From the NCBI GenBank assembly GCA_051362555.1, contig CM120641.1:14942001-15006000 (forward strand): a stretch of 64,000 nt of DNA, given 5' to 3'. Position numbers and translations under genes: made by a program. This stretch comes from Lingula anatina. Lineage: Eukaryota > Animalia > Brachiopoda. Below are positions 26,835 through 51,895 of the stretch, in pieces (the stretch's first letter is position 1; the number at the start of each line of letters is the position of its first letter). A model generated the notes under the pieces. The model had not been told where the DNA came from, made no database searches, and worked only from the letters and a program-made list of their open reading frames with translations.

Positions 26835-29366
26835 ATGTTGTGCAAACTTGTAACTCTGTTAGTTTTCACCACGCTGTCATTGGCCTGGCGGCCGCATCAT
26901 GATTCCAGCAATTGTTCAATTGAAAATGCCCCACTGCGCCAAGATGTCATTTACAACTGCTCGGGTAGGAAGCTTCACGGCGTTCCAGTCGACTTTCCAG
27001 ACAATGTCACGGTGATCGATTTATCCTACAATCGAATCACCAGCATAACGCCGGGTAATTTCGCTCATCTGCGTAATCTCAGTCGCCTGTACCTGTCGGA
27101 CAATCGCATAGGAAAACTTGAGTTGGGTGCATTTGTAGATGTCCCTAATTTACGAGTGTTGAATCTACGATCTAATTACTTACGAATGGATTACGAGTCA
27201 TTTCCACGAGGCGTTTTTAAAAATCTGTCCCAATTACAATGGTTAGATGTAAAAAACAACACCAACCGTTACCCACAACCGAACGAAAACTATCCTGACG
27301 AGACCTTCAAAGACTTGGCGGGTTTAACAGAACTATATCTGGACGGACTTAATATGGAGAATTCTGTTCTTGGCCCAGGATTTGCTTCTCTTAAAAGATT
27401 GCGTTTATTGGATTTTTCTGGAGATAACGGACGCTGCAGTCTAAAGAAATTAAGTAAAAATGTATTTTACAATTTACGCAATCTTCAATTGGAGCATCTC
27501 GATCTAGCGTTTTGTGAACTGTATAAAATTGATAACTTAACTTTCAGCTTTCTACAAACAATCAAGACTCTTGATATTTCAGGTAACAAATATCTTGGAT
27601 TAAATAGACTGGGAGGAGTTTTTTATGGATTACAAAATTCATCTTTAGAGCGGCTAATACTGAATGCAACAACGTCTCCAGATGATAGAACGTACAAGCT
27701 GTACAGTAGTCGTGTTTTTCATTACCTCCGGAACATTACAACACTAAAACATTTAACTCTCGACACTAATTACATATCAGATCTTGAATCAGACACGCAC
27801 ATGTACGTGGAACATTTAGAAACCCTCTCCCTTTCCGATAACACGTTCCTTAACGCAGTCAAGCCAGCGTTTGACTTGTGCCATTTGCAACATCTTAAGT
27901 ACCTCAACTGGAGCTGGACATTTAGATCTAAACCTGGGATACTGTTCAAACAGCAATTAAGACGTGGAGAGTTAACGATTAATGTTGCTGCCCCCCCAAA
28001 AGTGGAGGTAGCTGATTTTAATAACAACAAATTGCAATGTCCGCTGAACCACATCATTTTGCACAACTCTACATCCATCAGGTTTCTAAACTTATCAAAC
28101 AATAATTTCTATGAATGGAATGGACCATGGGAAGTATTTGATAGCTCGCTTCGAAAGATGCATACTCTAGACCTCTCGGGTAACGGCTGTAGAAAAATCA
28201 GTGAGTGGTTCTTTTATAATTTTTCTACAACTCACATTTTACATTTACAGAATAATAAACTCGGACAATCTGACACTATAGCAAATGGCTCATATTCAAG
28301 TCCGTTTCGGTGGCTCGCCAATTTAACGTACTTGGATTTGTCTTCCAACGAAATGGAAAAAGTTTCCCCAACTTTGTTCAACAATAATACCAAGCTACAG
28401 ACAGTTATATTGAGAAACAATTATCTTACATCGGAAGGATTAAATCTTGACTTGAAAAACATATCCTTCTTGGATCTAGCCTACAATAATCTGGATTCTC
28501 TGAATGACAAAATGATGTTTGTATTAGACGACGTCCAATCACGAGAAAATTTGGTAAATGTGGTCGTAAATTTGGCGAGAAATCCGTTGCAGTGCATATG
28601 TGAAACTGAACAATTTTTCGTCTGGATGCAAAAAACAAAAGTACAATTTGTCGATCAAGATGACTATCAATGCACCCTAAAAAATGGAAGCATCGTTAGT
28701 ATAAAACAACTTTCTGCGATCATTGGACACCTCAAAGTCACGTGCGCTTCTAAACTTACTTTGACACTTGTGTCTGTTGCTGTTTCACTCGTAATCGTTA
28801 CTGTTGTCGCGTCTGCGGTGTATTACAGATTCAGATGGGAAATTAAGTATTTCTTTTATAAATTACGAATAAGACGCAAAGAATACGAAGAAGTTCACGG
28901 AGATGATAACTATCAATATGACGCTTTCGTGGCCTTTAGCAAGGAAGACTACAAGTGGGTGTACAGACAACTGCGACCCAATCTAGAAGACGCAGAAGCC
29001 GAGCAAGAGCGACTCCGTTTATGCCTTCATCATCGTGACTTCCTACCTGGTGAAGACATCGAGGAAAACATTATCCAATCTATCTCACAAAGCAGAAAAA
29101 CAGTTTTGGTGATAAGCCAAAATTTCGTGCGCAGCAACTGGTGCTACTTCGAAATGAAAATGGCGCGCATGCGATTGTTTGAAGAGGGAAAAGACGTCCT
29201 TGTTCTGATTATGTTGGAGGACATTCCATTCCGTGAAATGAATGACACCCTGTTTCATTTGTTTAAATCAAAAAGTTATTTGGAGTGGCCTGACAATCAA
29301 AGAGACCAAGAGCTTTTTTGGAAAAAGATAAGAATGGTACTAAAAAGAAATAATGATGGGGTTTAA
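26835..29366 (+). CDS. Toll-like receptor paralog 2, 843 aa
   Basis: Same SP-LRR-LRRCT-TM-TIR architecture; TIR nearly identical to paralog 1. Confidence 0.97.
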   Translation: MLCKLVTLLVFTTLSLAWRPHHDSSNCSIENAPLRQDVIYNCSGRKLHGVPVDFPDNVTVIDLSYNRITSITPGNFAHLRNLSRLYLSDNRIGKLELGAFVDVPNLRVLNLRSNYLRMDYESFPRGVFKNLSQLQWLDVKNNTNRYPQPNENYPDETFKDLAGLTELYLDGLNMENSVLGPGFASLKRLRLLDFSGDNGRCSLKKLSKNVFYNLRNLQLEHLDLAFCELYKIDNLTFSFLQTIKTLDISGNKYLGLNRLGGVFYGLQNSSLERLILNATTSPDDRTYKLYSSRVFHYLRNITTLKHLTLDTNYISDLESDTHMYVEHLETLSLSDNTFLNAVKPAFDLCHLQHLKYLNWSWTFRSKPGILFKQQLRRGELTINVAAPPKVEVADFNNNKLQCPLNHIILHNSTSIRFLNLSNNNFYEWNGPWEVFDSSLRKMHTLDLSGNGCRKISEWFFYNFSTTHILHLQNNKLGQSDTIANGSYSSPFRWLANLTYLDLSSNEMEKVSPTLFNNNTKLQTVILRNNYLTSEGLNLDLKNISFLDLAYNNLDSLNDKMMFVLDDVQSRENLVNVVVNLARNPLQCICETEQFFVWMQKTKVQFVDQDDYQCTLKNGSIVSIKQLSAIIGHLKVTCASKLTLTLVSVAVSLVIVTVVASAVYYRFRWEIKYFFYKLRIRRKEYEEVHGDDNYQYDAFVAFSKEDYKWVYRQLRPNLEDAEAEQERLRLCLHHRDFLPGEDIEENIIQSISQSRKTVLVISQNFVRSNWCYFEMKMARMRLFEEGKDVLVLIMLEDIPFREMNDTLFHLFKSKSYLEWPDNQRDQELFWKKIRMVLKRNNDGV

Positions 29367-30791: not shown

Positions 30792-31925
30792 AGGGGGGGG
30801 GGAGGGTACAAGTGCGGGAACATCCCCTCTTCGACTGGGAATTGTAAATGAGCACACAAGGATCTAACACTGTGTACATGCACGGCACAGGGAAGTAAAA
30901 CTTGTTTGGCTGTGTCTCGTAGCTGTCTTGAATTTTCCTCTTTGAAATGGGGGGGGGGGGGGGGGGGGCAGAAAAGGAAAACAGGGTATCTCAGGTGCAA
31001 AAGGAAGGAGTTTTAACCATGCTGTCACCGCCTGGTGACATCATGCCTGGTCACCGTACTGTAATGTTAGTAATTGTCAGCCACGAGTGAACAAGGAGCA
31101 GGGAGTGTTTAGTAGTGTAATTTGACTTGATTGATATGACCTAGTTGTACTTATGAGCAGAGCGTAATGTAAACAAGAGAGAACGATGTAAGAGGTTGAA
31201 CGGAGAGGAATAAATTGTAGATAGTGTAGTTAGGAAGTGATAATAAAGGATATGAAGGAACATGATGTTGTTCAGTTTTACCTCGCGTAACAAGTAAGAC
31301 AAAGTCAGTAACGTCGTCACAGTATCATAGACCGCTCCCACCCCCAGGGAAACGGCAATGTGTTTTAATGCATTTAAAGTGTTGTCTTGGTCATTCTTGA
31401 AATTATATTTCACAGGTCAGCACCTTAACATATTTTCATCTCTCGACATTTCTATCATCTATGTGTCGTTTTGAATTTTAATGTTAGTTATACAAGCGAC
31501 AAAATATGTACATTTTAATCACAGTGCATTTATTTTATGCTTATCACTGGCTTACTAATTACCAATTTCGCTTTTGATACAAAGCGTCATCCCCTTTCAC
31601 ATGGAATGTGTGTTGATAGTAAGTATCGTTTTGTTTGTGCACAAATCGATTCGATTTTATTTTTGGCTGGAAACTAAAATTATTTTTTCTAAAGCTATTC
31701 ACAGTTCAAACTTTATTTGTTTAGTAATTTCATTTTTGCTATCAGCAGCGCACGTGATATTGATATTGGTCATGGGATCGTGAGTTTTACTTCCACCTTT
31801 TTTCCTCCATATTTTCATATAACAATACTTCGTACTTCCTTTTCCAATAATAGAATCCAACACAATATAAGAAAAAGGGTCTCTCGTTGAAATCGCAGTA
31901 TCCGTCAAACTCTACAGCATTCAGC

Positions 31926-34451
31926 ATGTTGTGCAAACTTGTAACTCTGTTAGTTTTCATCACGCTGTCATTGGCCTGGCGGCCGCATCATGATTCCAGC
32001 AATTGTTCAATTGAAAATGCCCCACTGCGCCAAGATGTCATTTACAACTGCTCGGGTAGGAAGCTTCACGGCGTTCCAGTCGACTTTCCAGACAATGTCA
32101 CGGTGATCGATTTATCCTACAATCGAATCACCAGCATAACGCCGGGTAATTTCGCTCATCTGCGTAATCTCAGTCGCCTGTACCTGTCGGACAATCGCAT
32201 AGGAAAACTTGAGTTGGGTGCATTTGTAGACGTCCCTAATTTACGAGTGTTGAATCTACGATCTAATTACTTACGAATGGATTACGAGTCATTTCCACGA
32301 GGCGTTTTTAAAAATCTGTCCCAATTACAATGGTTAGATGTAAAAAACAACACCAACCGTTACCCAAAACCGAACGAAAACTACCCTGACGAGACCCTCA
32401 AAGACCTGACGGGTTTAACAGAACTATATCTGGACGGACTTAATATGGAGAATTCTATTCTTGGCCCAGGATTTGCTTCTCTTAAAAGATTGCGTTTATT
32501 GGATTTTTCTGGAGATAACGGACGCTGCAGTCTAAAGAAATTAAGTAAAAATGTATTTTACAATTTACGCAATCTTCAATTGGAGCATCTCGATCTAGCG
32601 TTTTGTGAACTGTATAAGATTGATAACTTAACTTTCAGTTTTCTACAAACAATCAAGACTCTTGATATTTCAGGTAACAAATATCTTGGCTTAAATAGAC
32701 TGGGAGGAGTTTTTTATGGATTACAAAATTCATCTTTAGAGCGGTTAATACTGAATGCAACAACGTCTCCAGAAGATAGAACGTACAAGCTGTACAGTAG
32801 TCGTGTTTTTCATTATCTCCAGAACATTACTACATTAAAACATTTAACTCTCGACACTAATTTCATATCGGATCTAGAAAATAACACCCACGTGTACTTG
32901 GAACATTTAGAACTTCTCTCCCTTTCCGATAACACGTTCCTTAACGCAATCAAGCCAGCGTTTGACTTAAGCCATTTGCAACACATTAGGTACCTCAACT
33001 GGAGCTGGACATTTAGATCTAAACCTGTGGTGCAGTTCGAACAGCAATTAATACATGGACAGTTCAAGTTCAACTGTTTTTCACCTCCAAATTTAGAGGT
33101 GGCTGACTTTAATGACAACAATGTGCGTTATCCACTCAACCACATCATTGTTCATAACGCTACGTCTCTCAGGTTTCTAAACTTATCAAACAATAATTTC
33201 TATGAATGGAATGGACCATGGGAAGTATTAGATAACTCGTTTCAGAAGATGAGTACTCTAGACCTCTCAGGTAACGGCTGTAGAAAAATCAGTGAGACAT
33301 TCTTCTGTAATTTTTCGACAACTCAATGTTTACATCTGCACAATAATAAACTCAGATATTCTGAAACTATATCAAATGGCTCATATCCAAGTCCGTTTCG
33401 GTGGCTCGTCAATTTAACATACTTGGATTTGTCTTCCAACGAAATGGAAAAAGTTTCCCCAACTTTGTTCAACAATAATACCAAGCTACAGACAGTGATG
33501 TTGAGAAACAATTATCTTACTTCGGATGGATTAAATCTTGACTTGAAAAACATATCCTTCTTGGATCTCGCCTACAATAATCTGGACTCTCTGAATGACA
33601 AAATGATGTCTGTATTAGACGACGTCCAATCACGAGAAAATTTGGCAAATGTGGTCGTAAATTTGGCGGGAAATCCGTTGCAGTGCATATGTGAAACTGA
33701 ACAATTTTACGTCTGGATGCAAAAAACAAAAATACAATTTGTCGGTCAAGATGACTATCAATGCACCCTAAAAAATGGAAGCAGCGTTAGTATAAAACAA
33801 CTTTCTGCAATCATTGGACACCTAAAAGTCACGTGCGCTTCTCAATTTACTTTGACACTCGTGTCTGTTGTTGTTTCACTCGTTATCGTTACTGTTGTCA
33901 TGTTTGCGGTGTATTACAGATTCAGATGGGAAATTAAGTATTTCTTTTATAAATTACGAATAAGACGCAAAGAATACGAAGAAGTTCACGGAGATGATAA
34001 CTATCAATATGACGCTTTCGTGGCATTTAGCAAGGAAGACTACAAGTGGGTGTACAGACAACTGCGACCTAAGCTAGAAGACGCAGAAGCCGAAGAAGAC
34101 CGACTCCGTTTATGTCTTCATCATCGTGACTTCCTGCCAGGTGAAGACATCGAGGAAAACATTATCCAATCTATCTCACAAAGCAGAAAAACAGTTTTAG
34201 TTATAAGTCAGAATTTCGTGCGCAGCAACTGGTGCTATTTCGAAATGAAAATGGCGCGCATGCGATTGTTTGAAGAGGGAAAAGACGTCCTTGTTCTGAT
34301 TTTGTTAGAGGACATTCCATTCCGTGAAATGAATGACACTTTGTTTCATTTGTTTAAGTCAAAAAGTTATTTAGAGTGGTCTGAACACGAAGGTGCTCAT
34401 GACTTATTTTGGAGAAAGCTAAAAATGGTCCTGAAAAGAAAGAACATTTAG
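31926..34451 (+). CDS. Toll-like receptor paralog 3, 841 aa
   Basis: ATG at 31926 is homologous to the paralog 1 and 2 starts (MLCK); same architecture; divergent C-terminus WSEHEGAHDLFWRKLKMVLKRKNI. Confidence 0.97.
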   Translation: MLCKLVTLLVFITLSLAWRPHHDSSNCSIENAPLRQDVIYNCSGRKLHGVPVDFPDNVTVIDLSYNRITSITPGNFAHLRNLSRLYLSDNRIGKLELGAFVDVPNLRVLNLRSNYLRMDYESFPRGVFKNLSQLQWLDVKNNTNRYPKPNENYPDETLKDLTGLTELYLDGLNMENSILGPGFASLKRLRLLDFSGDNGRCSLKKLSKNVFYNLRNLQLEHLDLAFCELYKIDNLTFSFLQTIKTLDISGNKYLGLNRLGGVFYGLQNSSLERLILNATTSPEDRTYKLYSSRVFHYLQNITTLKHLTLDTNFISDLENNTHVYLEHLELLSLSDNTFLNAIKPAFDLSHLQHIRYLNWSWTFRSKPVVQFEQQLIHGQFKFNCFSPPNLEVADFNDNNVRYPLNHIIVHNATSLRFLNLSNNNFYEWNGPWEVLDNSFQKMSTLDLSGNGCRKISETFFCNFSTTQCLHLHNNKLRYSETISNGSYPSPFRWLVNLTYLDLSSNEMEKVSPTLFNNNTKLQTVMLRNNYLTSDGLNLDLKNISFLDLAYNNLDSLNDKMMSVLDDVQSRENLANVVVNLAGNPLQCICETEQFYVWMQKTKIQFVGQDDYQCTLKNGSSVSIKQLSAIIGHLKVTCASQFTLTLVSVVVSLVIVTVVMFAVYYRFRWEIKYFFYKLRIRRKEYEEVHGDDNYQYDAFVAFSKEDYKWVYRQLRPKLEDAEAEEDRLRLCLHHRDFLPGEDIEENIIQSISQSRKTVLVISQNFVRSNWCYFEMKMARMRLFEEGKDVLVLILLEDIPFREMNDTLFHLFKSKSYLEWSEHEGAHDLFWRKLKMVLKRKNI

Positions 34452-34998: not shown

Positions 34999-35381
34999 TA
35001 AAAGAGCAACTTCAGTGTTTCCCAATAGAAGGTACAAGATACATAACATTCATCAGTTGATCGCTGTCGAGGCAGTCACAATGAATGCGTTGCGTTCAGC
35101 TATCACTTAAAGACGCTTTGTAAAGCAACCTCCTGGAAATAACATACACTAAGCAGGCTAGCAATGCCATGAATAACAAGTAAGAGATATCAAAATCACC
35201 GATTGAAAAGGGTTGCTGAAATATTCGAAAGCACCAGAAAATATGAAAGCGAGGTTGATTTGATTCTAATACTTTCACCTGTTGGCTGCGTGTTATATTT
35301 TTTGTGAGGGGACCGCTGGCCTCGTGTCTGCCTCTTAGGAACATTAATTAACGAGCCGACTGACGGAACAAGTTTTTTTAA

Positions 35382-35447
35382 GACACATGTATGGAGCTGT
35401 TGAAATCACACAGCAAGAGCAAACCGTCTCCGGAACTCGGACTTGAG
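35382..35447 (+). pseudogene. Truncated folate-receptor-like exon 1 (3' third only)
   Basis: DTCMELLKSHSKSKPSPELGLE|gtagag; 5' part lost by deletion. Confidence 0.85.
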
Positions 35448-37153
35448 GTAGAGATTTACATGTATCTGAATATTTAACGCTCAGTTAAACTTATCTACAG
35501 CGTATTGGAATCAACTTGGCCCACCAGTACATGTGCATGTGTTTTATCCGTTTTATTAACGTGGTGGTCTCAGGCAAGTTTATACTACCATTATGTAATA
35601 GACACTAGATGTAGGTCAATACTTTACAAACAGGGGGAAGTCAGAATGTGTGTACATGTATGTATGTATGTACAAACTATTTATATACTCGCGTATATGC
35701 ATAGAAAGAAAAAAACATGCCCCCCCCCCCTCACACCAAACAAGTTACGAAAGGTGAGAAACTTTAAATGTCTACCTCTGTACGAGCTAGGACACGCAGT
35801 CCCGGTACTTATACATGTAGTGCCCTTATTTAACCAACAGCATCTTACGGAAATACATGTAAGCATTATACACGTCACCCAAGGGCTTAGTTCGAATAGT
35901 CTTTTTTGATGAAAAGAGGGTTTAGTAAAAATACTGAAAGGGATAACAAGTGTGCGTATGAGATTTGTATTTCACATATGAGATTCATAAATTGTAAACA
36001 ACTCATAAAAATATAATAAATTCAATTTTACCACCTAAACGGCGGTTATCGCAATTATTTTGGAATCTGTGCTTGTCATCAGACCACGTGGACCTTATCT
36101 ATACGTACATACACATAAAGATATATACACCTCCGTAAAAATCTCCAAAGAGTTTATTATAAAATCAATTTTTTAGAAAAAGACCATGGACTAACTTTGA
36201 ATGCTTGCAGATTCATTAACCTGGTAAGTATGGGAAAATCGTCGTTTACCCCTGGAAAATTAGTTTTTTGGCCAAAACTAACGGCTGCTATCCCTTGAAT
36301 AATCCATTTTTTACGTGTTATATTTTTTGTGAGGCGACCGCTGGCCTCGTGTCTGCCTCTTGGGAACATTAAGGAGCCGACTGACGGAACAAGTTAGTTT
36401 TTTTTAAGAAGCAGCGGCGATTATGGTCGTTGCGCTGGGAGTGAGAAGTCCGAACAGGATGACGTCTCGTTTCTACGAACAGTAAGGTTGAACTAGTTGA
36501 ATATGGCACAACTCCCCCTACCCAGGTCGCCAAAGTAGTAGCTTTCAGAATGAAGACTACTGAGTATACCGCAGAAAATAGTTTCAGGCCAAGAGAGAGC
36601 CAGCCTAGGGCATATTTCTAGCTAAAATGTAATCAGTGGAACAGCGCCCCCGTTGAGTTAATATCATATATAAAAGTTATATCTGTCATCAATAAACTTC
36701 CTACAGTGTACATCACATATCGGTGACATCTCTGTATAGAGTAGTAGGCCACTGATTGTTATCATCCACATCCAGCTGGAAAAAAATTCTCAGCGCAATT
36801 ACCCACCTCAAAGAAACACTTTTCAAAATAATCCACCTTTCTGGGCTTTGCCATGTGCCTGGGTCTCTCATGGGCCTATAACATTACTGTCACACCTGCT
36901 CCCTGGACCACCACAAACATCCACATTCCAGGCTCTGTCAGCAAGCAAACATTATCATATGATTGTATTAGGCTGTGTAGTAGTAGTAGTAGTTTATTAT
37001 CATCACTGTATGCGTATGATTACATAATAAATATCTAGCGAGCAGAACATTACATACAGGGATAAATGATCAATAAAGGCATTACAAGTATAATATGTAG
37101 CGCAATACAATACCATGACAAAAACTTATAGTTCGGTACACCGTTTTTAAAAG

Positions 37154-37625
37154 CTACGTTTCTGATATTTTCAAGACCTTGTATACATATGAAACGACTA
37201 AGTGCAAATTGTTCTTTGAAAATAGATCCCCTAAGGACGTATATACCAGCTCAGGGTAGGCAGAACGCGTCACTGATGTGAGCTCGCATTTGCTTATAAC
37301 ATGTACAGGGGGGTAGCTCTGTTTGCATTTCACCACACTTGCAGACACGTTCGTTCCTCTCTTTACGACACCAACGACCCGTTTCGATTGCCAATCTACG
37401 AGAACTTAGCCTAAACCTAGTAGTAGCTATGCGTAGATATTCCGGGATATCGAAGCGGTTTGCGTACATATCCCACACTTCCAGATTGGGGTTCATTTCT
37501 AAATAAGTTGTTGCTTTTGTTTGATTCGAATTTTTAAGTTGATCTTTTAGGTTTTCAATGTCCAAGTAAATATGATTGGATGTACATGTAACCACCTTCC
37601 CTATAGCTGGTGGAAGCCACTGCAT
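37154..37625 (-). mobile_element. Non-LTR retrotransposon ORF2 C-terminal fragment (frameshifted copy)
   Basis: LRIATTRFRLSSRRLAIETGRW..ERVCKCGEMQTE; 10-bp insertion relative to the 39983 copy. Confidence 0.8.
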
Positions 37626-38093
37626 TTCACCACAGACAATACCATCTCATGAGACTTATTTCTTATCGCTCCTGGAAACCTCTCTAATTATCGCTCATTA
37701 CGTACGGAGTACAGTATGCATTGCAATACAGGTGAATGTACCGTTGTATCTCTTCCGCAGCATAATAACTTATCGAAAAAGAGAATGGGGGAAATTTAAA
37801 TATTTATAACGCGCACCTTGGCACCAGCGTGCACTAAATGATTCAGCCGCCTGATAAAGACAAGACGAAGCAGTAATTTGAATAATGACTCTCTACCACT
37901 GCTACAACTACTACTGTATACCGGATGTGTAATTGTTAGAGGATAACCGCTGGGGCGTAATGGGTTAGGGGAGGGTGTTGATTTGTGCGCTGATTTTAGA
38001 GCGTGAGCACCAGTGAAAGGTGAATGTATTTGCCGAACCTTTCTTAATCTTACGTCATTGACGGACTTTGTCAAGGACACAGTTACATGAACC

Positions 38094-38270
38094 ATGCATA
38101 GCTACCCGTTGTCTCAAGCACTGTGGGCATCCACCATTGTTTTCTTAAGCTATCAGGCCCGCCATGTCGCCGACCCGAGGCTCCGCACCGCAGACGACTA
38201 TCTGGACACATGTATGGAGTTGCTGAAATCACACAGCAAGAGCAAACCGTCTCCGGAACCCGAACTTGAG
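38094..38270 (+). CDS. Duplicate intact folate-receptor-like exon 1 (possible alternative first exon or orphan)
   Basis: ATG..MHSYPLSQALWASTIVFLSYQARHVADPRLRTADDYLDTCMELLKSHSKSKPSPEPELE|GTAGAG, phase 0. Confidence 0.55.
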
Positions 38271-39982
38271 GTAGAGATTTACATGTATCTGAATATTTAA
38301 CGCTCAGTAAAACTTAGCTACAGCGTATTGGAATCAACTTGGCCCACCAGTACATGTGCATGTGTTTTATCCGTTTTATCAACGTGGTGGTCTCAGGCAA
38401 GTTTGTACTACCATTATGTAATATATTAGACACTAGATGTAGGTCAATACTTTACAAACAGGGGGAAGTCAGAATGTGTGTACATGTATGTATGAATGTA
38501 CAAACTATTTATATACTCGCGTATATGCATAGAAAGAAAAAAACATGCCCCCCCCCCTCACACCAAACAAGTTACGAAAGGTGAGAAACTTTAAATGTCT
38601 ACCTCTGTACGAGCTAGGACACGCAGCCCCGGTACTTATACATGTAGTGCCCTTATTTAACCAACAGCATCTTACGGAAATACATGTAAGCATTATACAC
38701 GTCACCCAAGGGCTTAGTTCGAATAGTCTTTTTTGATGAAAAGAGGGTTTAGTAAAAATACTGAAAGGGATAACAAGTGTGTGTATGAGATTTGTATTTC
38801 ACATATGAGATTCATAAATTGTAAACAACTCATAAAAATATGATAAATTCAATTTTACCACCTAAACGGCGGTTATCGCAATTATTTTGGAATCTGTGCT
38901 TGTCATCAGACCACGTGGACCTTATCTATACGTACATACACATAAAGATAAATACACCTCCGTAAAAATCTCCAAAGAGTTTATTATATAATCAATTTTT
39001 TAGAAAAAGACCATGGACTAACTTTGAATGCTTGCAGATTCATTAACCTAGTAAGTATGGGAAAATCGTCGTTTACCCCTGGAAAATTAGTTTTTTGGCC
39101 AAAACTAACGGCTGCTATCCCCTGAATAATCCATTTTTTACGTGTTATATTTTTTGTGAGGCGACCGCTGGCCTCGTGTCTGCCTCTTGGGAACATTAAG
39201 GAGCCGACTGACGGAACACGTTAGTTTTTTTTTAAGAAGCAGCGGCGATTATGGTCGTTGCGCTGGGAGTGAGAAGTCCGAACAGGATGACGTCTCGTTT
39301 CTACGAACAGTAAGGTTGAACTAGTTGAATATGGCACAACTCCCCCTACCCAGGTCGCCAAAGTAGTAGCTTTCAGAATGAAGACTACTGAGTATACCGC
39401 AGAAAATAGTTTCAGGCCAAGAGAGAGCCAGCCTAGGGCATATTTCTAGCTAAAATGTAATCAGTGGAACAGCGCCCCCGTTGAGTTAATATCATATATA
39501 AAAGTTATATCTGTCATCAATAAACTTCCTACAGTGTACATCACATATCGGTGACATCTCTGTATAGAGTAGTAGGCCACTGATTGTTATCATCCACATC
39601 CAGCTGGAGAAAAAATTCTCAGCGCAATTACCCACCTCAAAGAGACACTTTTCAAAATAATCCACCTTTCTGGGCTTTGCCATGTGCCTGGGTCTCTCAT
39701 GGGCCTATAACATTACTGTCACACCTGCTCCCTGGACCACCACAAACATCCACATTCCAGGCTCTGTCAGCAAGCAAACATTATCATATGATTGTATTAG
39801 GCTGTGTAGTAGTAGTAGTAGTTTATTATCATCACTGTATGCGTATGATTACATAATAAATATCTAGCGAGCAGAACATTACATACAGGGATAAATGATC
39901 AATAAAGGCATTACAAGTATAATATGTAGCGCAATACAATACCATGACAAAAACTTATAGTTCGGTACACCGTTTTTAAAAG

Positions 39983-40444
39983 CTACGTTTCTGATATTTT
40001 CAAGACCTTGTATACATATGAAACGACTAAGTGCAAATTGTTCTTTGAAAATAGATCCCCTAAGGACGTATATACCAGCTCAGGGTAGGCAGAACGCGTC
40101 ACTGATGTGAGCTCGCATTTGCTTATAACATGTAGCTCTGTTTGCATTTCACCACACTTGCAGACACGTTCGTTCCTCTCTTTACGACACCAACGACCCG
40201 TTTCGATTGCCAATCTATGAGAACTTAGCCTAAACCTAGTAGTAGCTATGCGTAGATATTCCGGGATATCGAAGCGGTTTGCGTACATATCCCACACTTC
40301 CAGATTGGGGTTCATTTCTAAATAAGTCGTTGCTTTTGTTTGATTCGAATTTTTAAGTTGATCTTTTAGGTTTTCAATGTCCAAGTAAATATGATCGGAT
40401 GTAGATGAAACCACCTTCCCTATAGCTGGTGGAAGCCACTGCAT
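39983..40444 (-). mobile_element. Non-LTR retrotransposon (CR1/L2-group-like) ORF2 C-terminal fragment
   Basis: TRFRLSSHRLAIETGRW..R.C.C...QTELHVISKC: the cysteine/histidine-rich tail that follows RT in many LINEs. Confidence 0.8.
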
Positions 40445-40921
40445 TTCACCACAGACAATACCATCTCATGAGACTTATTTCTTATCGCTCCTGGAAACCT
40501 CTCTAATTATCGCTCATTACGTACGGAGTACAGTATGCATTGCAATACAGGTGAATGTACCGTTGTATCTCTTCCGCAGCATAATAACTTATCGAAAAAG
40601 AGAATGGGGGAAATTTAAATATTTATAACGCGCACCTTGGCACCAGCGTGCACTAAATGATTCAGCCGTCTGATAAAGACAAGACGAAGCAGTAATTTGA
40701 ATAATGACTCTCTACCACTGCTACAACTACTACTGTATACCGGATGTGTAATTGTTAGAGGATGACCGCTGGGGCGTAATGACCGTAATGCGTTAGGGGA
40801 GGGTGTTGATTTGTGCGCTGATTTTAGAGCGTGAGCGTCAGTGAAAGGTGAATGTATTTGCCGAACCTTTCTTAATCTTACGTCATTGACCGACCTTGTC
40901 AAGGACACAGTTACATGCACT

Positions 40922-43854
40922 ATGCGTAGCTACCCGTTGTCTCAAGCACTGTGGGCATTCACCATTGTTTTCTTATGCTATCAGGCCCGCCATGTCGCCG
41001 ACTCGAGGCTCCGCACCGCAGACGACTATCTGGACACATGTATGGAGTTGTTGAAATCACACAGCAAGAGCAAACCGTCTCCGGAACCCGGACTTGAGGT
41101 AGAGATTTACATGTATCTGAACATTTAACGCTCAGTAAAACTTAGCTACAGCGTACTGGAATCAACTTGGCCCACCAGTACATGTGCATGTGATTTATCC
41201 GTGTTATCAACGTGGTAGTCTCAGGCAAGTTTGTAATACTTTACAAACATAGGGAAGTCAGAATGTGTGTATGTATGTATTTATATACTCGCGTATATGC
41301 ATAGAAAGAAAAAAACATGCCCCCCACACAAACCAAGTTACGAAAGGTGAGAAACTTTAAATGTGTACCTCTGTACGAGCTAGGACACGCAGTCCCTGTA
41401 CTTTACATGTAGTGCCCTTATTTAACCAACAGCATCTTACGGAAATACATGTAGGCATTATACACGTTTCCCAAGGGCTTAGTTCGAATAGTCTTTTTTG
41501 ATGAAAAGAGGGTTTAGTAAAGTATACGTACTGAAAGGGATACCAAGTGTGCGTATGAGATTTGTATTTCACATATGAGATTCATAAATTGTAAACAACT
41601 CATAAAATTATAGTAAATTCAATTTTACCACCAAAACGGCGGTTATCGCAATTATTTTGGAATCTGTGCTTGTCATCAGACCACGTGGACTTTATCTATA
41701 CGTATATATACATATAGCTATCTATACCTCCGTAAAAATCTCCAAAGAGATTATTATAAAAATATTTTTTTAGAAAAAGACCATGGACTAACTTTGAATG
41801 CTTGCAGATACATTAACCTGGTAAGTATGTGAAAATCGTCGTTTACTCCTGGAAAATTAGTTTTTTGGCCAAAACTAACGGCTGCTATCCCTTGAATTAT
41901 CCATATTTTACGTGATCGCGTTAGCACGACGTGTCAATTGCACCTCCTCACAACTTGTTAGCCCTGAGATTTTTTTTTAATCGGAACCGGCTACGGGCCA
42001 TTTCGGGCTACGGCTACGGTTTTGTTTTTCGGACAACCACACCGTGCCTTCTCACGTACAGTTGTGTACGACGCACGAAAAAGAAATTAAAATACGGACA
42101 AGATGAGACTCCATGGGGGTATCGCAAGCCAAATGTAACGGTAACTTTGGAATGAGCCTCTCCTCTCACACTCACAACCGCGCGATGGGTGAACAATGTA
42201 AGATCTGTGTGTTAAACTTATCAGCGTTAAATCCTTGTCACCTCTCCCTTCTCTAAGTGGCGAACATCCGTCGTTTAACACCCCATTTCCAGAGATTAGA
42301 TCGACCTATTTTAGATCGACCTAACTCCCTGGGGGTTCACGCTAAATAGCTGTCAGCCGGGCGGACACGAAAGTTAATTACCACCTGACAGCTTGTAGTA
42401 AGCGGGACGGACATTTAAGTCGGATTATCTGAAAGTAATCTAGTGAGACTCCCCGCGGGGATAGATCGATCTAAAATCTATGGGAATAGAGCTACCAGGT
42501 GCAATTAAATGTACCCTATATGCATCTTGTCGGTGGTTGCTTGTTTCCTGGACATTGCTTGAGCGTTTGAAACAATCTAGCAGATTGCATTAATATGTCG
42601 TTTAACGGTTAGCTTAATAATTCATGTTTTTATGACTTTTAGTGTCCCCAGTATACGAAGAAGTCGTGCTGTAAAGCGGGTGTGACAGAGGATTTTGAGA
42701 CAAAGGAAAACTGGCAGAACATCACCAGCTATGTCCACTGTCCACAGAAGAGCAGTCTGTCACCGATGTGTCACAAGATGTTCTTTGATGAACTCTGCTT
42801 TTTCCTGTGCTCACCTTATATTGGGCCGTGGATTGCCCCCGCGGTGAGAGCGAGCACGATGGCTTTATTTTGAGTCAAGACATTTTGTTTGCTTATAAAC
42901 AACACTTCTGAATAGGAAAAATAATGCTTGACAATCGCTGTTGATCATATAGTACTGATTTCACTGAGGCGCGTACTATAATTCATGTGGGGGGGGGGGG
43001 CGCTTACCCCTCTTTGATTCATATGTAATTTCTTTTTTTTTTCTTTCAAACACACACGCATGCACTTCACCATTTTACAGATGTTAGGGCTAAATTTGTT
43101 GAACATGCAGCATGAAACAGCAATCAATCATTTCACACATGAATATAGCACTATACTTTTAAATACAAATAAAACTGTATTGGACGCTTGTACTTCGTTT
43201 CAGACACATGACGAACCTGTAACCGACCGCTTCACAGACGTTCCATTGTGCGCCAGTGAGTGTAACTCGTGGTGGGAGGCATGCAAAGGAGAATATACTT
43301 GTCACGAAAATTGGTACACTGATTTTGATAGAGATGAAAATGGTAAATTCTTTACTTTTTATTTAACTGATGACTTGTGTATCAAAAATCGGATTATATG
43401 TGTGCCGCCGAAGCGTCGCAATCTTCGTTATTTGATCAAAATAAATGGTCGAAGAATATACCAGCACAAACATATACTCAAAGTCGTTTATTTCAATCTA
43501 ATCTCGTGGCACCAGTAGGTTTGTCTAGTGGGGTCGTGGTTTTCAAAAACAATGTCTTTTGCGTGATTGACTAGTTAAAACTATTATCACTAAGTAAGTA
43601 TAAATATTAAAATATATTTAACTTTCCTTTTAGGATTAAACATATGCAAAGAGGGCGCTGAGTGCAGGACGTATGAAGACGTGTACGGGACAGCTTTCCA
43701 CTTTTGTGAAATAATTTGGGATCATTCTTTTAAGGTAGTCCCAGATGAAGTGCCTTGCATGAAATTTACGTTCGATCCTTCTGGCCCGGATCCTAATGAA
43801 GCGACGGCGAGAATGGTCGCAGAGACAAGTGCAAAAATGCACGAGGAACTGTGA
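40922..43854 (+). CDS. Folate receptor / riboflavin-binding protein family, paralog A ending in HEEL (exons 40922-41098, 42643-42843, 43204-43342, 43634-43854)
   Basis: GT-AG introns with phases 0,0,1; family motifs C..H.K.KPSPE, CPQY...SCC, CFFLCSPYIGPWI, DVPLC..EC..WWEACK..YTC..NW, FCEIIW.HSFKV, CMKF.FDP...PNE; ends ...ETSAKMHEEL*. Confidence 0.9.
42282..42491. mobile_element. MITE (TAGATCGA family) in intron 1
   Basis: Near-identical inverted copy at 48670-48882; imperfect TIRs. Confidence 0.8.
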
Positions 43855-45595
43855 GGACAGAGTCATCGTCAGCTGAAGTGCTCCAAAAATCTAGAATTGT
43901 GAATAAAATGTTGGAGTTAATGCCTGAGAAATATCCATTTTTCCAAGATAATAAAGATAATTGTACTGTTGAATTGTATTGGATAGGCAAAGTATGTGCT
44001 GTGTTATGATTTGAAAAATATAGATAGAACAACTCTTTGCGACACTTTGTACATGTACATGATAAATTATTTTTTTATACAAAACTAGAATTGTTGTTTG
44101 GTTTTTCTTTTTACCTCTTTATCACCTTGCTAGTTATAGAAAAAAAAAGATAATTAAGAAGCCTTGGTAGGGAAAAAGGACGGACGGACTTAAAGAAGAC
44201 TTTCCAAAAAATACAATACAACGACCTTTAAGGTTTTAAGGCATATCCAGGCACTGTAAAACACCAAAGATAATTTGAAATATGCAAGTACATGTATTCC
44301 GAACACTGTGCAATACCCCCTTGTTCATTATTAAATATAGTGTATTCATATGGTAGATTCTTTCAATATTTTATTTCAATTTTAGGATGTAACAAGAATT
44401 TGTGAATATTTAATTGCACGTGTTATAGGTGTGAAGTATGAGAATTATTGTGCCACAAACGCACAAAAACTGGCGGACGTTTTTTTGCTCTAAGAGAATA
44501 GCATTCGATTTGGAGATTGTCATTTATCAAAGTAAAGACGTTTAAAATGAGAAAGTAAAAGAAACAAGAAACAAGACAGCTGGTGATAATAATCACATCG
44601 CCAACCAGGAAATTTATATGCGTCATTAACTAGAAAGTACTACACAAAATTATAGAAAGTAAAGTAACGTGACGTACGATACTAAAGATCAAAAAGATTG
44701 CATTCAATGAAAAATGAGTCGCAAGATTTGAACGAAATACACATCCTTACCTTCCTCTATTTGCAACAATCGCATGATTAAAATTTATGGGATTCTGGCG
44801 GCAGGATTCTGGTCGTCCACATATTTCTATTGGACATTGACCATCTTTGTCAAATTCTAAATCCAAAATACCCTTAGATATACGTTAAATTCCTGCTGTT
44901 TTCCTTTTGCTTGAGCCGTTGCTTGCATCCCTTGCTTCGTTGTACTCTGTATGGTGAATGCTTCGCAATATGCGCCCTGACTCGCACATATTTGTATCAC
45001 TGCCCTGGTCACAGGTCATTTACATGTGATAAATAAGGATCATTTTTAGAACAAACGTTTGATAATAGGTCTGAACTGAATTATACATCGGGTAAAAACC
45101 TCAAGTCAGGAATTTAAATGATGGATTTTGTAGCTTTCTCAAGGCTGACTCCTGCGTCGTGTTTACATGACCTAAATGAATATTTTTAAATATTTTTAAA
45201 AATATTTATGACCTAAATACAGCATATGATGCTATCTGATTTTAAACGTTTTTTCAGCAATTCGAGATGCATGGATTTTAGTTTATTGAGTGAATTAAAC
45301 ACTAAACCAACCACTATTTGTCACTCAAGGACATTATGAACGGGCAGTGTCCGACTTTAAAAAATAAGAAACAGAAGAAGATGACCAAGGTCACGACCCC
45401 TGCATTCGTCTTTTCAAATGTTGACCCTGGCAATACTACACACTACATAAAGAATGTGAGATATATGCAGCAGGGGTTGCTAGGGGAGTGCTACTTGTAT
45501 GGTCTGTTAATCATCCGTACAAAGAGGGGCCCTAGATTGTGTGTAGTAGATTTTAGACACTACTGTATTTGTCGGAAGAGACATCCCTGGTTTTA

Positions 45596-48124
45596 ATGGC
45601 TGGTGACCAATTTTCTCAAGCGATGTGGACTTTCTTTGTCGTTATTCTGATATGGCAGGCACTACATGTCGCCGACTCAAGGCTCCGCACTGCAGACGAC
45701 TATCTGGACACATGCATGGAGCTGTTGAAATCACACAGCAAGAGCAAACCGTCCCCGGAACCCGGACTCGAGGTAGATGAAACTTCTAATTACTGCAAGA
45801 CACGAAAAAGTACGTTTCACCCTAACCACACCTTACCGTGTCATTTATTACTTCTCAGCGCGGCCAGTGTGTAATTACTGGGGGGAAAAAGAGGGAAACA
45901 AAAATGCAGGCTTTCTGTTTACCAGTACATTATTTGCTATGAAAAGCGAGATAAAAATTTTTATTATAGGTTTCACAATATAAATTTTAGTAGTAAGTGA
46001 ATGGTTAGAGTGATATTTTAAGGTAGTAGAGGGAGTTTCCTTAGAATAATAACCAAGTTAATATGTCCAAGGAATAAGGTCTCATTCTTGGTAGGCCTGT
46101 AAGTAAGGGAGTCTACACCAAAAGTCTTAAACCTAGGGCGAAGCATACATGTATATGTACAAATTAATGGGGAACGGTCACTCTATCAAGGGGACTCTCG
46201 ATCACGTTACACCGGCAATAGAGACCTTGCACTGAGGTTATTAATTGTTCCACAAGACAAAGATGTATGCTTTTTACTGACGACTTAGCACATTTAGTGT
46301 GGTGAGTGGTCTTCAATATTTATTATGTAAGGTTTTAACCAAAATCTATACACATAAATTACACTCGCAATTGTGGAAATGGTATGAACAATATTGAGGG
46401 ACACCTTAAAGACGGTTGGAGCGGGCTTTTTCGGTTAAAAAAAAAACAGTCCATGAAATGAAGTCAACTACGATGCAGAGAGGGGCGTAGAGTCTCATTT
46501 TGTAACTGCAGCCTGCAACCAAGAGAAAGTTCTTGAGGTCACTAAACTGTTCAAAGACCTATATACATATTACAAACTATAGGTGGGAGCTGCTTAACTA
46601 AATTACCAATTGTCGTGTTAACGTCTCATCAATACGAAAAATCCCGCCGAATACGAGGAGTATTACGCACTAATCGAGATCCACCGGAGCGCCAAAGACT
46701 ATCCAACACTTTCGTCTATCCAACTTTTTAAAATACATCGTTGGATCTGCTTTTTAGTATGCAAATTTGATTATCATATGCATATGTAGTGTCAAATAAA
46801 TTCATATTTGACTTTTCAAAACAAATTCAGTGTCCCCAGTATACGAAGAAGTCGTGCTGTAAAGCGGGTGTGACAGAGGACTTTGAGACAAAGGAAAACT
46901 GGCAGAACATCACCAACTATGTCCACTGTCCACAGAAGAGTCGTCTGTCACCGATGTGTCACAAGATGTTCTTTGATGAACTCTGCTTTTTCCTGTGCTC
47001 ACCTTATATTGGGCCGTGGATTGCCCCCGCGGTGAGTGCGACAATGGTGACTCTATTTTGAGTCAAGACAATATTGTTAAATGAAAATTTGGAACTTTAA
47101 ATTTCATTGTTATGATACACACTTTTGAAAATGACCCCTCCAAAGAATTACGATATCTGTGGCAGTCATCATTTCTAGTAGTTAAAATTTTAATATCACT
47201 GTTCTACATGTACCAGTATCTGCATTCTGACACCCACATTCCCTACTATTCTCCTTTCCAAAATTCTCTTCATATTTTTTCTCTGTTACACCTACACTAC
47301 TAAATATAAACAAACAAATACCGACAATTACACATCATATATAACATAGAACAGGCTACAAAATAGCGTGGCTTTAGGATGTCATACACATATACTAATT
47401 TTTTCAGACACATGACGAACCTGTAACCGACCGCTTCACAGACGTTCCATTGTGCGCCAGTGAGTGTAACTCGTGGTGGGAGGCATGCAAAGGAGAATAT
47501 ACTTGTCATGAGAACTGGTACACTGATTTTGATAGAGATGAAAATGGTATATGTCATTCATCTCCATGTCAGTAAATATTTGTAGAAAAAAACGTGTCTA
47601 ATGTGTTATAGTAGGCCCACTTAACTTTCCTTTGACAATGCGACGCTGCTCCAGTTGACTGCTACAATATAAAAGAAAATATTGGAATACATCAGCGCAA
47701 ATACAAACAAACAAACAAACAAATAAATAAATAAATGAATGAATAAATAAATAAACAATTTAAAACCTATGTTAATATGAGGCTAATATCACTAAGATTA
47801 ATACGTAAGGCGTTTTTTTTAGGAATAAACGTATGCAAAGCTGGTGCGGAATGCAGGACGTATGAAGCCATGTACAGGACAGCTTCCAACTTTTGTGAAA
47901 TTATATGGGATCGTTCATTCAAAGTGGTCCCAGATGAGGAACCCTGCATGAAATTCACGTTTGATCCAGCTGGCCTGGATCCGAATGAAGAGACGGCGAG
48001 GAAGGCTGCAGCGTCGAGCGCTATAAGGAACCTAGGAATGTCATTTTTTCAGTGGATTTGTTCTTTTTTTCTGATACATTGTATGACCCTTTACCAAAAC
48101 TTGCCTGCATGGGTGAATACATGA
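45596..48124 (+). CDS. Folate receptor / riboflavin-binding protein family, paralog B with GPI-anchor-like tail (exons 45596[or 45623]-45772, 46831-47031, 47408-47546, 47823-48124)
   Basis: Same exon sizes (201, 139 nt) and phases as paralog A; signal peptide MWTFFVVILIWQALHVADS; C-terminus AAASSAIRNLGMSFFQWICSFFLIHCMTLYQNLPAWVNT (small residues, then a hydrophobic stretch). Confidence 0.92.
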
Positions 48125-48669: not shown

Positions 48670-48882
48670 GCTGTATTCCCAGAGTTTTTAGATCGATCTA
48701 TCCCCGCGGGGAGTCTCACTAGATTACTGTCAGATAATCCGACTTTAATGTCCGTCCCGCCTACTACAAGCTGTAAGGGGGTAATTAACTTTCGTGTCCG
48801 CCCGGCTGACAGCTATTTAGCGTGAACCCCCAGGGAGTTAGGTCGATCTAAAGTAGATCGATCTAATCTCTGGAAATGGGGT
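48670..48882. mobile_element. MITE (TAGATCGA family), inverted relative to 42282-42491
   Basis: Reverse-complement match over ~200 bp. Confidence 0.8.
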
Positions 48883-50884
48883 CCTAGAATTATCCTATAA
48901 TTAAATATCAGCTGGACATGATCTTCGTCAGTCATTTTCTCAGAATGCTGTACTCTGTTATCTTTGTATGACTTGCAGTATGTGGAGGAATAATAAGTCT
49001 TTGAACCAGAAATAATCAATAACCTTATTACTCTTGGCTTAAGTTTGGCATTTTTAAAGGCAAGTTTTGGTAAAGTGCCTTATAGGCTTACATGTACGCA
49101 ATGTATGTACTGTATCTCCACTTGTAATAACGCATCTCCTTAATGAGTAAATTATACTTGTCATATGGAGAGTATTGTGCTGATATCCACTATAAATGCT
49201 CCTGTGTGTGTATGTAAGCATGGTTGATAACCATGGAAATGAATATCAACCTTAGTGCAGTATATAACTTGGTAATTATCATGCATCCTACCTCAGTTAT
49301 GCATACGCGTAGGCCCTATACGAGTACATGTACATGTGCTCACGTTTTCTTTTTGTATCGACAAACCATTATGTGATGTTGGACAAATAAGTACTCATAT
49401 GTGTCTGATACATGTGGAATTTATATGAACTACGGGCGCATCAGTATAGGTAAATTCGTTACGGTAACAGCACACAGGTCTGAGGTACAGTGTAACCCAT
49501 AGTTGAGATATGAATACAATAAGTAAAATGTATACATATGTACGTATGTTTGTTTGTATGTATGCATACTTATGTGATAATAAATATGTTAAAAAAGAAA
49601 ACATATTAATGTTTAACAAGAGGCTATGCGTGCTATGGATAGGTCGTTGAGGAATAAACTGGTTTCATATTTCTCTACATTTCCAATTGCTGTAGTACGA
49701 CGTTTAGTATTGATTACTCTTCTGCATAACGAAGAACCTATCTCCAGGAATTCCACAAAGTCGGGCATATTTATACAATGATGCAAACGTTTTAACGTTT
49801 ATAATCAAAATATATGGTACGTATAATGTAGTGTGACAATCTTCATCTCTTGTACCTGAATTATATATAATCGTCTGCAAAATGTAGTAACGTCCATGTA
49901 CATGTGCATGAGACCATGAGACATACTTTAAATACTATCTACTAGAATTCTAGATTTTTAAACCTTACATTATATGCCGGGAATATATTTTTATATCTCC
50001 TCATTAACCCAAGCGAAAATATAAGTAAAGGACAAACACAAATATGTTGCTCGAAATTTGGCCGGTAGCGGCCGCTTTTATTGAAAGGTCCCTCTAGTAA
50101 AAGAATAATGTTAGTTATTACATAGCATTAGATAATGTTAATTTCATAAAAATTACGTAATGTTATAGCATAAAAAATAAATATCCAAACAAATAGTGCC
50201 CATATTTTCATTTGTGGGGTTGCAACATAAGAATTGTTGAATCAAATCTATTGCAAGAAAGTGGCTGCTACAATATGTCTAGTATGTGATTTACATGTAC
50301 ATCAAAATTTTGCCCAAGTATTGTTGCATTTTGAATATTCACTCTTGTATATTACTTGACTAGTGCTGTAGGGCTTTGCATACTATCGCCAGATGAAACC
50401 ATGAGATCAGTTTACTGAGATGACATCAAACACATTCACTTCTCACCTGAGGTCGATTTCTACCGGTTGGGCGATTTTCCAAGCGTGTTTCCAAAGTAAC
50501 CAGAACACTATTGGACGCGTCAAAATTTATTATGTCAAGGGTTTCATTTATTCAAAGGCATTAGTAGGATTGGTTTGCTTCCAGCTGTAGCGTGGAAAAA
50601 AGAGATGGTCATCGGAAACCCTCGGTACATTTTCAGGTGAGCCTTTCAGCGACACAAAGTGCTTTACACGTATTGACAGTGACTGTGGAGGATTGCGTAT
50701 TATTGATTAACGTGGAAAGATGATTTAATCAGTAAAAAGCTTTCCTTTGAGAGGCTAACAAGTGATCTGGATTGATACATAATTTCCTCTCTGTTCATTC
50801 CCCTCCGTACGCGTGGCATGAGAACAAATTTAGAAATAGATCTCAACAGATAGTTCCAAAACAGAACAGTGTGAGATCTACAAA

Positions 50885-51895
50885 ATGAATATGAACAGCG
50901 GGTCGAGCCAGGGCTCTCTTACTACTGCCGTGGTGAATTCTACATTTGTCCACTCTCATGGAGATGTCTTATACTTCGAAACCGATTGGTATAAAGCCTT
51001 TGTTGTGTCTACTTTGTCGGTTTTAATGTTTCTGATTTGTTTCGGAAACGGCTACGTGATATTCGTCTACTTTTACGTGCGAAAATTACAAACGAAGGGT
51101 AACCTGATGATCATCCACCTCGCAGTGACGGACTTCGTCGCCGGTCTGGCCGTACCATATCATATAACGACATTTGTGGACACGTCATTGTCAGAAAACA
51201 TTTACTCGTGTATACTAAGGTACTCCTTGAATGTGTTTCCAGGAATGGCCTCACTGTTGTCATTGCTGATGATAACAGTGCATCGATACAAGGCTATCGT
51301 TCACCCGTTACAACACCAAGTCAGTAACTCTCGACGGTTTGCATGGATAACTGGAATTATGGTGTGGGTGCCATCGTTTTTATTTGGGTTCGTCTTACCT
51401 TTTATATGGCACAAAAACTGGTCCTTCGAAAGTGACAGGGATTGCGAATTTTCACTTGTGCTTACAGAGGAGTATATTTCATATACGTTGGTTCTGCCCT
51501 TCTTTCTCATAGCTATGAGTATATTTTCTCTTTACATGGGAATATTGGTCATGGTGAAAATTCGAAACAGGCGCCAAGTTGGTCCAGATAACATTGGGCC
51601 GTCGGCAACAGAATTGGCACAACAGCGTGAGATTAAACTGACAAAGACCATTGCCCTCATACTGATTGGATTTTTTCTATGCTGGGCGCCTTTCATTGTC
51701 ATTCTTGCTGTGCATTCATTTTCATATGCGCCTTATTCGACTAATGCCATTGTCATGAGAAATGCCTTCAACTTTTTGGCTGGTGGCAATTGCGGATTGA
51801 ACCCTATATTGTATGCCATCCGTTTGCCAGAATTCCGTGAACCACTGCGAAGAATTGTTTCAAAAGGCCCACAGTCACGTACTTTGACCAACTAA
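50885..51895 (+). CDS. Intronless class A (rhodopsin-like) GPCR, adenosine/amine-receptor-like orphan, 336 aa
   Basis: Seven hydrophobic segments; GN (TM1), LAVTD (TM2), HRY (TM3), W (TM4), CWAPF (TM6), NPILY (TM7), helix 8 EFR. Confidence 0.93.
   Translation: MNMNSGSSQGSLTTAVVNSTFVHSHGDVLYFETDWYKAFVVSTLSVLMFLICFGNGYVIFVYFYVRKLQTKGNLMIIHLAVTDFVAGLAVPYHITTFVDTSLSENIYSCILRYSLNVFPGMASLLSLLMITVHRYKAIVHPLQHQVSNSRRFAWITGIMVWVPSFLFGFVLPFIWHKNWSFESDRDCEFSLVLTEEYISYTLVLPFFLIAMSIFSLYMGILVMVKIRNRRQVGPDNIGPSATELAQQREIKLTKTIALILIGFFLCWAPFIVILAVHSFSYAPYSTNAIVMRNAFNFLAGGNCGLNPILYAIRLPEFREPLRRIVSKGPQSRTLTN

Follow-up and report, generated by a model that had tools for sequence, protein, structure and literature searches.

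Can a member of the folate receptor family be addressed to the lumen of the endoplasmic reticulum (ER) instead of the cell surface or the outside of the cell? The question is raised by a stretch of 64,000 nucleotides from the brachiopod Lingula anatina (contig CM120641.1, positions 14,942,001 to 15,006,000; the whole stretch is here called the window), in which two neighbouring genes of the family, paralogs A and B, lie in tandem and the product of paralog A ends in the tetrapeptide HEEL. Folate_rec proteins are glycosylphosphatidylinositol (GPI)-anchored receptors (FRalpha, FRbeta and Juno), secreted carriers (FRgamma and riboflavin-binding protein) or parts of larger membrane proteins. Paralog A is a real, lineage-specific variant of this known family, an anchorless member with an ER-retrieval-type end. 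Its retrieval to the ER through HEEL, predicted from the sequence, is given a probability of about one half.

The gene model of paralog A includes the following features.

40922-43854, + strand: paralog A, a four-exon Folate_rec gene of Lingula anatina, one of the two neighbouring folate-receptor-family genes
40922..41098, + strand: paralog A exon 1, ATG at 40922, signal-peptide-like start MRSYPLSQALWAFTIVFLCYQARHVA, end PEPGLE, GT donor at 41099
42643..42843, + strand: paralog A exon 2, Pfam PF03024 match of 39.3 bits at profile positions 22-84, junctions found in RNA
43204..43342, + strand: paralog A exon 3, Pfam match of 44.9 bits at profile positions 86-125, ending in phase 1
43634..43854, + strand: paralog A exon 4, end of the Folate_rec domain (profile positions 128-171, 25.1 bits), predicted C-terminal helix, HEEL and stop
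43855..44160, + strand: paralog A 3' untranslated region (UTR), with RNA depth past the stop and AATAAA at 43902 and 43950

The acceptor AG of exon 4 lies at 43632-43633, and the exon begins at 43634. Splicing of 42643-42843, 43204-43342 and 43634-43854 keeps the frame open to PNEATARMVAETSAKMHEEL and the stop, with the C-terminus SAKMHEEL; the last codons, CAC GAG GAA CTG TGA at 43840-43854, encode HEEL (43840-43851) and the stop TGA (43852-43854). That spliced paralog A ends in this way had been claimed in a sequence-only reading of the stretch, and it is borne out both by the sequence and by a database protein. This protein, P0001 (XP_023932569.1, 'folate receptor beta [Lingula anatina]', 205 amino acids), was 100% identical to the exon 4 query and corresponds to the model from MELLK through HEEL, without the first 40 of the 245 residues of the full model. 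Exon 1 was located by tblastn with exon 1 of paralog B (78% identity). Its ATG aligns with that of paralog B, the frame is open from 40922, and the N-terminal hydrophobic core ALWAFTIVFLCY reaches 2.09 in its best 12-residue Kyte-Doolittle window, inside the range of the relatives. Translation probably starts at this ATG, which would give the protein a signal peptide.

An index search with the stretch itself gave no RNA run, and four of nine raw-read RNA sequencing runs labelled Lingula anatina (X1, X4, X7 and X2) were mapped to positions 38000-45100 of the window. The following junctions of paralog A were used.

41096>42641, GT..AG: 18 reads in X1, 24 in X4, 1 in X7 and 13 in X2
42842>43203, GT..AG: 17 reads in X1, 29 in X4, 6 in X7 and 26 in X2
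43341>43633, GT..AG: 16 reads in X1, 25 in X4, 0 in X7 and 5 in X2

The last of these is the junction that had been predicted at 43342/43634, and the use of the stop behind it is seen in the depth past the TGA. RNA depth over 43688-43924 was 3 in X1, 18.3 in X4, 0 in X7 and 2.3 in X2, and beyond the stop (43925-44161) it was 3.5 in X4 and 1.0 in X2, with 0.35 and 0.83 in the following bin. Transcripts splicing out before the HEEL stop, named beforehand as a result that would speak against the idea, were absent, as none of the four runs showed a joint leading out of exon 4 ahead of the stop. The first mates lay on the minus strand, as plus-strand RNA gives in usual stranded libraries. Exon 4 carried at least two read differences, 43737 A>T (silent by frame reading) and 43774 G>A (Asp to Asn, 10/19 reads in X4), and among the differences listed none fell in the HEEL and stop codons. 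Paralog A is expressed and correctly spliced, and its stop codon is used in RNA.

Because the B letter was found in only 0-2 of 29-37 reads at the sites telling A from B, the X4 reads represent true paralog A transcripts. In X1 and X2 most reads of exons 2-3 were mosaic (A at 42728, T at 42693, C at 42753 and B letters at 43305/08/11), and these letters fit the residues of a third, B-like protein, P0002 or copy C, described below with paralog B. The X7 reads were B-like. With A-type reads in X4, mostly C-type reads in X1 and X2 and B-like reads in X7, the three copies thus dominate different samples.

By profile, cysteine framework and fold, paralog A is a member of the folate receptor family. 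The Pfam family PF03024 (Folate_rec) matches exons 2-4 collinearly with the scores listed above (cut-off 29.8 bits), and P0001 also bears a precomputed PF03024 match; as paralog B matches the same family, the tandem Folate_rec pair stands as it had been described. Residues 6-196 of P0001 matched human FRbeta (E 3.6e-34) and FRalpha (E 7.7e-31), and P0001 also matched Juno and the riboflavin-binding protein chain (PDB 6hce; E 6.5e-27). The AlphaFold2 model of P0001, built on a 22-sequence alignment, had a mean predicted local distance difference test score (pLDDT) of 87.9, and its Foldseek comparison with the PDB found FRbeta (4kmy; E 1.1e-17, template modelling (TM) score 0.80) and FRalpha (4lrh; TM 0.84), together with Juno and riboflavin-binding protein. 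Solved folate receptors contain eight disulfides, and the cysteine columns conserved among 12 outgroup relatives were all present in both paralogs (16/16 in A and 16/16 in B).

The Asp, Trp and Ser columns that we take to be pterin contacts are retained in A (FFDELC and IIWDHS in the alignment with the human chains). The human H-K-G-W stretch, which presumably holds the glutamate moiety, reads Y-T-D-F in A, and folate is therefore not established as its ligand. The GPI-anchored human FRalpha and FRbeta (FOLR1 and FOLR2) share the family and the fold with A, and their C-terminal helix (DP..NPNE..AR) aligns with it. In comparison to human FRalpha, A ends five to six residues past the stretch equivalent to the omega site, in HEEL and without a hydrophobic tail. 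FRgamma (FOLR3) and riboflavin-binding protein are, like A, Folate_rec proteins without a GPI signal, but they are secreted. Both derive from anchored ancestors through loss of the tail, and to our knowledge no member of their type has a KDEL-like end.

Paralog A lacks a membrane anchor: no 12-residue window of its final 45 residues scores above 0.42 in hydrophobicity, in comparison to a best window of 2.03 in B. The protein would enter the ER by its N-terminal hydrophobic segment. Since it is without a hydrophobic tail it would be soluble in the ER lumen, and as a soluble, lumenal protein ending in HEEL it would likely be a client of the KDEL receptor, which is assumed to be present in Lingula as in other eukaryotes. 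The HEEL end would then be exposed and bound by this receptor, and by the simplest guess A would bind the same small ligand as B within the early secretory pathway. The two-compartment vitamin role proposed in the sequence-only reading is hypothetical. In the AlphaFold2 model a C-terminal helix (residues 188-204 of P0001) extends past the domain, with pLDDT falling to 74 over the five terminal residues, which may speak for the accessibility of HEEL.

That HEEL is a recognised retrieval signal agrees both with the pattern search and with the available parts of two papers. Directly before the stop it fits the PROSITE ER pattern [KRHQSA][DENQ]EL, as quoted in the available part of PMC2140024. The same source describes a reporter screen in which H at position -4 performed as well as K or R, any residue except proline was accepted at -3, and E at -2 and L at -1 were favoured; it also locates the human HEEL protein C5orf21 in the ER (its Table I). 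In the part of PMC8248988 that was available, HDEL or HEEL is the canonical retrieval signal of human FKBPs. HDEL binding is stated, in the part of the literature at hand, to be ten-fold tighter than that of KDEL. As far as these sources reach, the FKBPs (PMC8248988) and C5orf21 (PMC2140024) carry the same class of tetrapeptide as A on a presumed lumenal protein, but they are unrelated to A in sequence and fold, and their signal is conserved and their localisation tested, whereas the signal of A is a predicted one.

The neighbouring paralog B has the following features.

45596-48124, + strand: paralog B, 4.2 kb downstream of A, 272 residues, ending in KAAASSAIRNLGMSFFQWICSFFLIHCMTLYQNLPAWVNT and the stop
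45596..45772, + strand: paralog B exon 1, signal-peptide-like start MAGDQFSQAMWTFFVVILIWQALHVA, Kyte-Doolittle value 2.33, N-terminus identical to that of P0002
46831..47031, + strand: paralog B exon 2, 4/201 bases different from exon 2 of A
47408..47546, + strand: paralog B exon 3, 3/139 bases different from exon 3 of A
47823..48124, + strand: paralog B exon 4, end of the domain, AAASSA, IRNLGMS, hydrophobic FFQWICSFFLIHCMTLY, nine residues QNLPAWVNT, stop

The continuation of B into a tail of small residues followed by hydrophobic ones was likewise confirmed: the stretch ARKAAASSA aligns onto ARFYAAAMS of human FRalpha, of which we take AAAMS to be the position of the GPI omega site, and the hydrophobic part has its best 12-residue Kyte-Doolittle window at the 2.03 given above. 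By the same crude measure a hydrophobic C-terminal tail was found in 87 of 169 family proteins, so the stretch of B is ordinary for the family; of these 169 proteins, word-index searches supplied 23, and the other 146 are representatives drawn from the best 150 of the 451 hits with E<=0.001. If its tail is a GPI signal, B is predicted to be at the cell surface on a GPI anchor. The third copy, P0002 (XP_013384402.1, 279 amino acids, with NITNYVHCPQKSSLSP), is B-like, and its gene lies outside the window. Its end, CSFFSDNSVFPLGFQWRKPVFEPKDNED, is unlike that of B and non-hydrophobic.

The divergence between A and B differs strongly among the exons, as seen from the synonymous (dS) and nonsynonymous (dN) values.

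A versus B, exon 1: dS 0.68, dN/dS 0.21
A versus B, exon 2: 4/201 bases different, dS 0.054, dN/dS 0.23
A versus B, exon 3: 3/139 bases different, dS 0.135, dN/dS 0 (no nonsynonymous difference)
A versus B, exon 4: 80-83% identical, dS 0.84, dN 0.124, dN/dS 0.15 (0.12 in the domain part)

Exons 1 and 4 are old duplicates under purifying selection. The sequence-only reading had described the binding domains of A and B as nearly the same, and indeed only two differences were found in the binding core (residues 25-172); the linker and tail have 8 nonsynonymous differences in 23 codons. Intron sequence is alignable between A and B only next to exons 2 and 3, over a few to about 46 bases. The near identity of exons 2-3 beside the diverged exons 1 and 4 suggests short gene-conversion tracts, and the history of the pair would then be an old duplication with middle exons homogenised by such tracts. 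Polarised by the 12 outgroups, the derived residues of the mature part numbered 10 in each paralog, with 5 more ambiguous, so that A has been as constrained as B. A faster evolution of A than of B was rejected by this symmetry. Since 16/16 of the conserved cysteines are also kept, A cannot be regarded as a copy in decay. The tree built from exon 4 placed A with B and P0002, these two together, inside the Lingula copies (supports 81/85 and 84/84).

Setting the stop of A against a serine codon of B relies solely on extending, without gaps, the register of the block 43628-43842 / 47817-48031 (80% identical). In this register CAC GAG GAA CTG TGA of A faces AAC CTA GGA ATG TCA of B. The residues facing HEEL and the stop are H-Q-G-M-S in P0002 (HQGM-S in copy C and NLGM-S in B). 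A GPI-signal spacer like that of B or C could thus have become HEEL and a stop by few point changes, including a nonsense change of the TCA-to-TGA type. Homology of the 3' UTR of A to the coding sequence of the hydrophobic tail of B was rejected, as 1171/2000 shuffles reached the observed local alignment score. Gene conversion may keep the ligand-binding cores of A and B alike with the targeting ends remaining different. The wider idea of a two-address pair, in which gene conversion keeps exons 2-3 alike, selection holds the targeting exons apart and A is the first ER-resident member of the family, is doubtful. Should it be true, the ER-resident protein would act early in the secretory pathway, capturing or chaperoning either the ligand that it shares with B or the surface receptor.

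Among the 169 family proteins an EL end was found in four: A, P0008 of Owenia fusiformis (NVEL), P0073 and P0135. P0008 (237 amino acids, ending in DKIKNVEL), from a lophotrochozoan annelid, is 53-54% identical and, like A, has a signal-like N-terminus, no hydrophobic tail and an EL end; apart from A, no other soluble protein of the 169 ends in this way. Unlike the HEEL of A, its NVEL is outside the PROSITE pattern. The exon 4 tree placed P0008 among the Owenia copies, and any similarity of its end to that of A would therefore be independent. Single substitutions to N at -4 and V at -3 were tolerated in the reporter assays described in the available part of PMC2140024. There is no support for a conserved subclass retained in the ER, since the remaining EL and DL ends, in P0073 (RMEL), P0096 (EIDL) and P0135 (VIEL), are explained otherwise. 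The ends of P0073 and P0096 would be cytoplasmic because they follow a transmembrane segment, P0135 resembles a poor gene model, and P0119 ends in KDEF right after a hydrophobic segment. In P0073 and P0096 (the latter folate receptor gamma-like, Styela clava), the transmembrane segment is accompanied by an acidic tail on the cytoplasmic side, which ends in GTLRMEL and GTLEIDL, respectively; the two represent a form of the family that spans the membrane and whose end looks conserved. The best-scoring proteins of the wide search were P0024 (1671 amino acids) and P0025 (1105 amino acids), which contain six and four Folate_rec stretches per chain, respectively. The earlier statement that no ER-retained family member was known agrees with the literature, in whose titles and abstract openings no naturally ER-retained member of the folate receptor family was found; at the same level, nothing on brachiopods was found for folate receptors and Lingula.

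The following observations weigh against the retrieval of A through HEEL. Relatives with an end like [KHR]-[DE]-E-L, which the sequence-only reading had proposed to seek, did not come to light: the pattern [KRHQSA][DENQ]EL occurs in 1/169 family proteins, namely in A itself, and neither the word-index nor the wide family searches found an orthologue of A from other species. Soluble Lingula members ending nearby with other ends (EEKATA, EKKATE and ANGKVN) are common, for which reason anchor loss can be explained without the ER, and HEEL could be a coincidence. By family amino-acid composition, a random C-terminus matches the pattern with a chance of about 2.8e-4, which is low for a single gene; by estimate, however, about one such chance case is expected per secretome of a genome, and the motif is not rare genome-wide. 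In the structure model HEEL is at the tip of a confidently predicted helix, which might limit its entry into the receptor pocket, and reporter localisation was poor with some of the motifs that match the PROSITE pattern (PMC2140024, available part). It is accordingly possible, though less probable than ER retrieval, that A is a secreted soluble binder like FRgamma or riboflavin-binding protein, whose HEEL arose accidentally by a nonsense mutation in a fast-evolving tail and gives at most weak or partial retention without functional importance. Besides the uniqueness of the motif and the poorly working reporters, this explanation has on its side the quick evolution of the linker and tail noted above and five anchorless Lingula relatives (P0009, P0012, P0013, P0017 and P0021), which end soon after the domain without a hydrophobic tail or a KDEL-like end. 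However, H at -4 with a final E-L belongs to the combinations that proved effective in assays (PMC2140024 and PMC8248988, available parts), and one base change could erase HEEL if secretion mattered, yet the gene is constrained (dN/dS 0.15) and the last codons are without a read difference among the differences listed.

The remaining objections to ER retrieval concern the start of the protein. The NCBI model P0001 begins downstream at MELLK, without a signal peptide, and a five-codon upstream open reading frame (ORF; 40915-40929, + strand, ATG CAC TAT GCG TAG) overlaps the ATG of A. The depth of X4 was 13.8 in the bin 40844-41080 versus about 24-29 at the 3' end of exon 1, which fits an RNA 5' end near 40880 if the coverage tapers and near 40955 if not, that is, on either side of the ATG at 40922. 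These points, as well as the position of the exon 1 region inside a recent 2.83-kb tandem repeat, would suit a copy that makes no functional secretory protein, being either started at MELLK, and then cytosolic with its disulfides impossible, or bound to become a pseudogene, so that HEEL would be meaningless. Such an outcome is improbable, as the dN/dS of exon 4 is 0.15 versus the value of about 0.5 that we would expect with one lineage neutral, the conserved cysteines are complete and the derived changes symmetric between A and B, the frame is open with a hydrophobic core and an ATG aligned with the start of B, and all junctions are cleanly used in RNA. It has also been considered that A could be surface-associated or exported in another way, for example bound to the GPI-anchored B or C or to another partner that masks HEEL. 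The paralog cores are nearly identical, and many proteins with KDEL-like ends are kept in place by other interactions (PMC2140024, available part), but the A and B/C-type transcripts dominate different samples (A in X4, mostly C in X1 and X2, B-like in X7), which argues against an obligatory partnership of A with B or C, and we regard this explanation as highly improbable.

If HEEL works as a retrieval signal, a few point changes in the spacer of a GPI signal would suffice to redirect a receptor from the cell surface to the lumen of the ER, and the pair would illustrate in nature how gene conversion can keep a binding domain unchanged across two compartments. The case rests on one species and one motif and is a lead, not a field-changing finding.

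The window has a G+C content of about 38%. A unit of 2.83 kb, containing exon 1 of A and the start of its intron 1, is tandemly repeated about 2.3 times at 35290-41820. Its copies are 91-100% alike and result either from recent duplication or from the assembly. The repeat includes two further copies of exon 1.

35382-35447: truncated exon 1 copy within the 2.83-kb repeat
38094..38270, + strand: intact second exon 1 copy within the 2.83-kb repeat upstream of A, reading from MHSYPLSQALWASTIVFLSY to PEPELE, with GT donor

An upstream ORF equivalent to that of A is present also at the 38094 copy. For the intact copy as a possible alternative first exon, the joint 38268>42641 was found with six reads in X1 and six in X2, and in no other run. 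Because nearly all the reads listed there differ from the window (9/9, 11/12 and 9/9 in X1), they may come from another copy; in X1 and X2, third-copy transcripts predominate. A degenerate exon-1-like piece at 15133-15327 (+ strand), 51% identical to exon 1 of B and containing stops, is a relic of a further duplication.

A repeat of 213 bases is found in intron 1 of A (42280-42492) and, inverted and 95% alike, downstream of B (48670-48882), with partial copies at 22031-22088 and 22688-22805. Each of the four runs covered it at an RNA depth of about 100-430, and the majority of the reads continue into unrelated sequence, for which reason the repeat is considered dispersed and transcribed. Rfam gave no match in the window at gathering thresholds, this repeat included. 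Three tandem intronless open frames of 851-865 codons (18778-21333, 26808-29366 and 31854-34451, + strand) contain leucine-rich repeats and a C-terminal TIR domain and resemble Toll-like receptor genes. Downstream of B, a 351-codon open frame at 50840-51895 (+ strand) contains a rhodopsin-family seven-transmembrane domain (E 5.4e-40).

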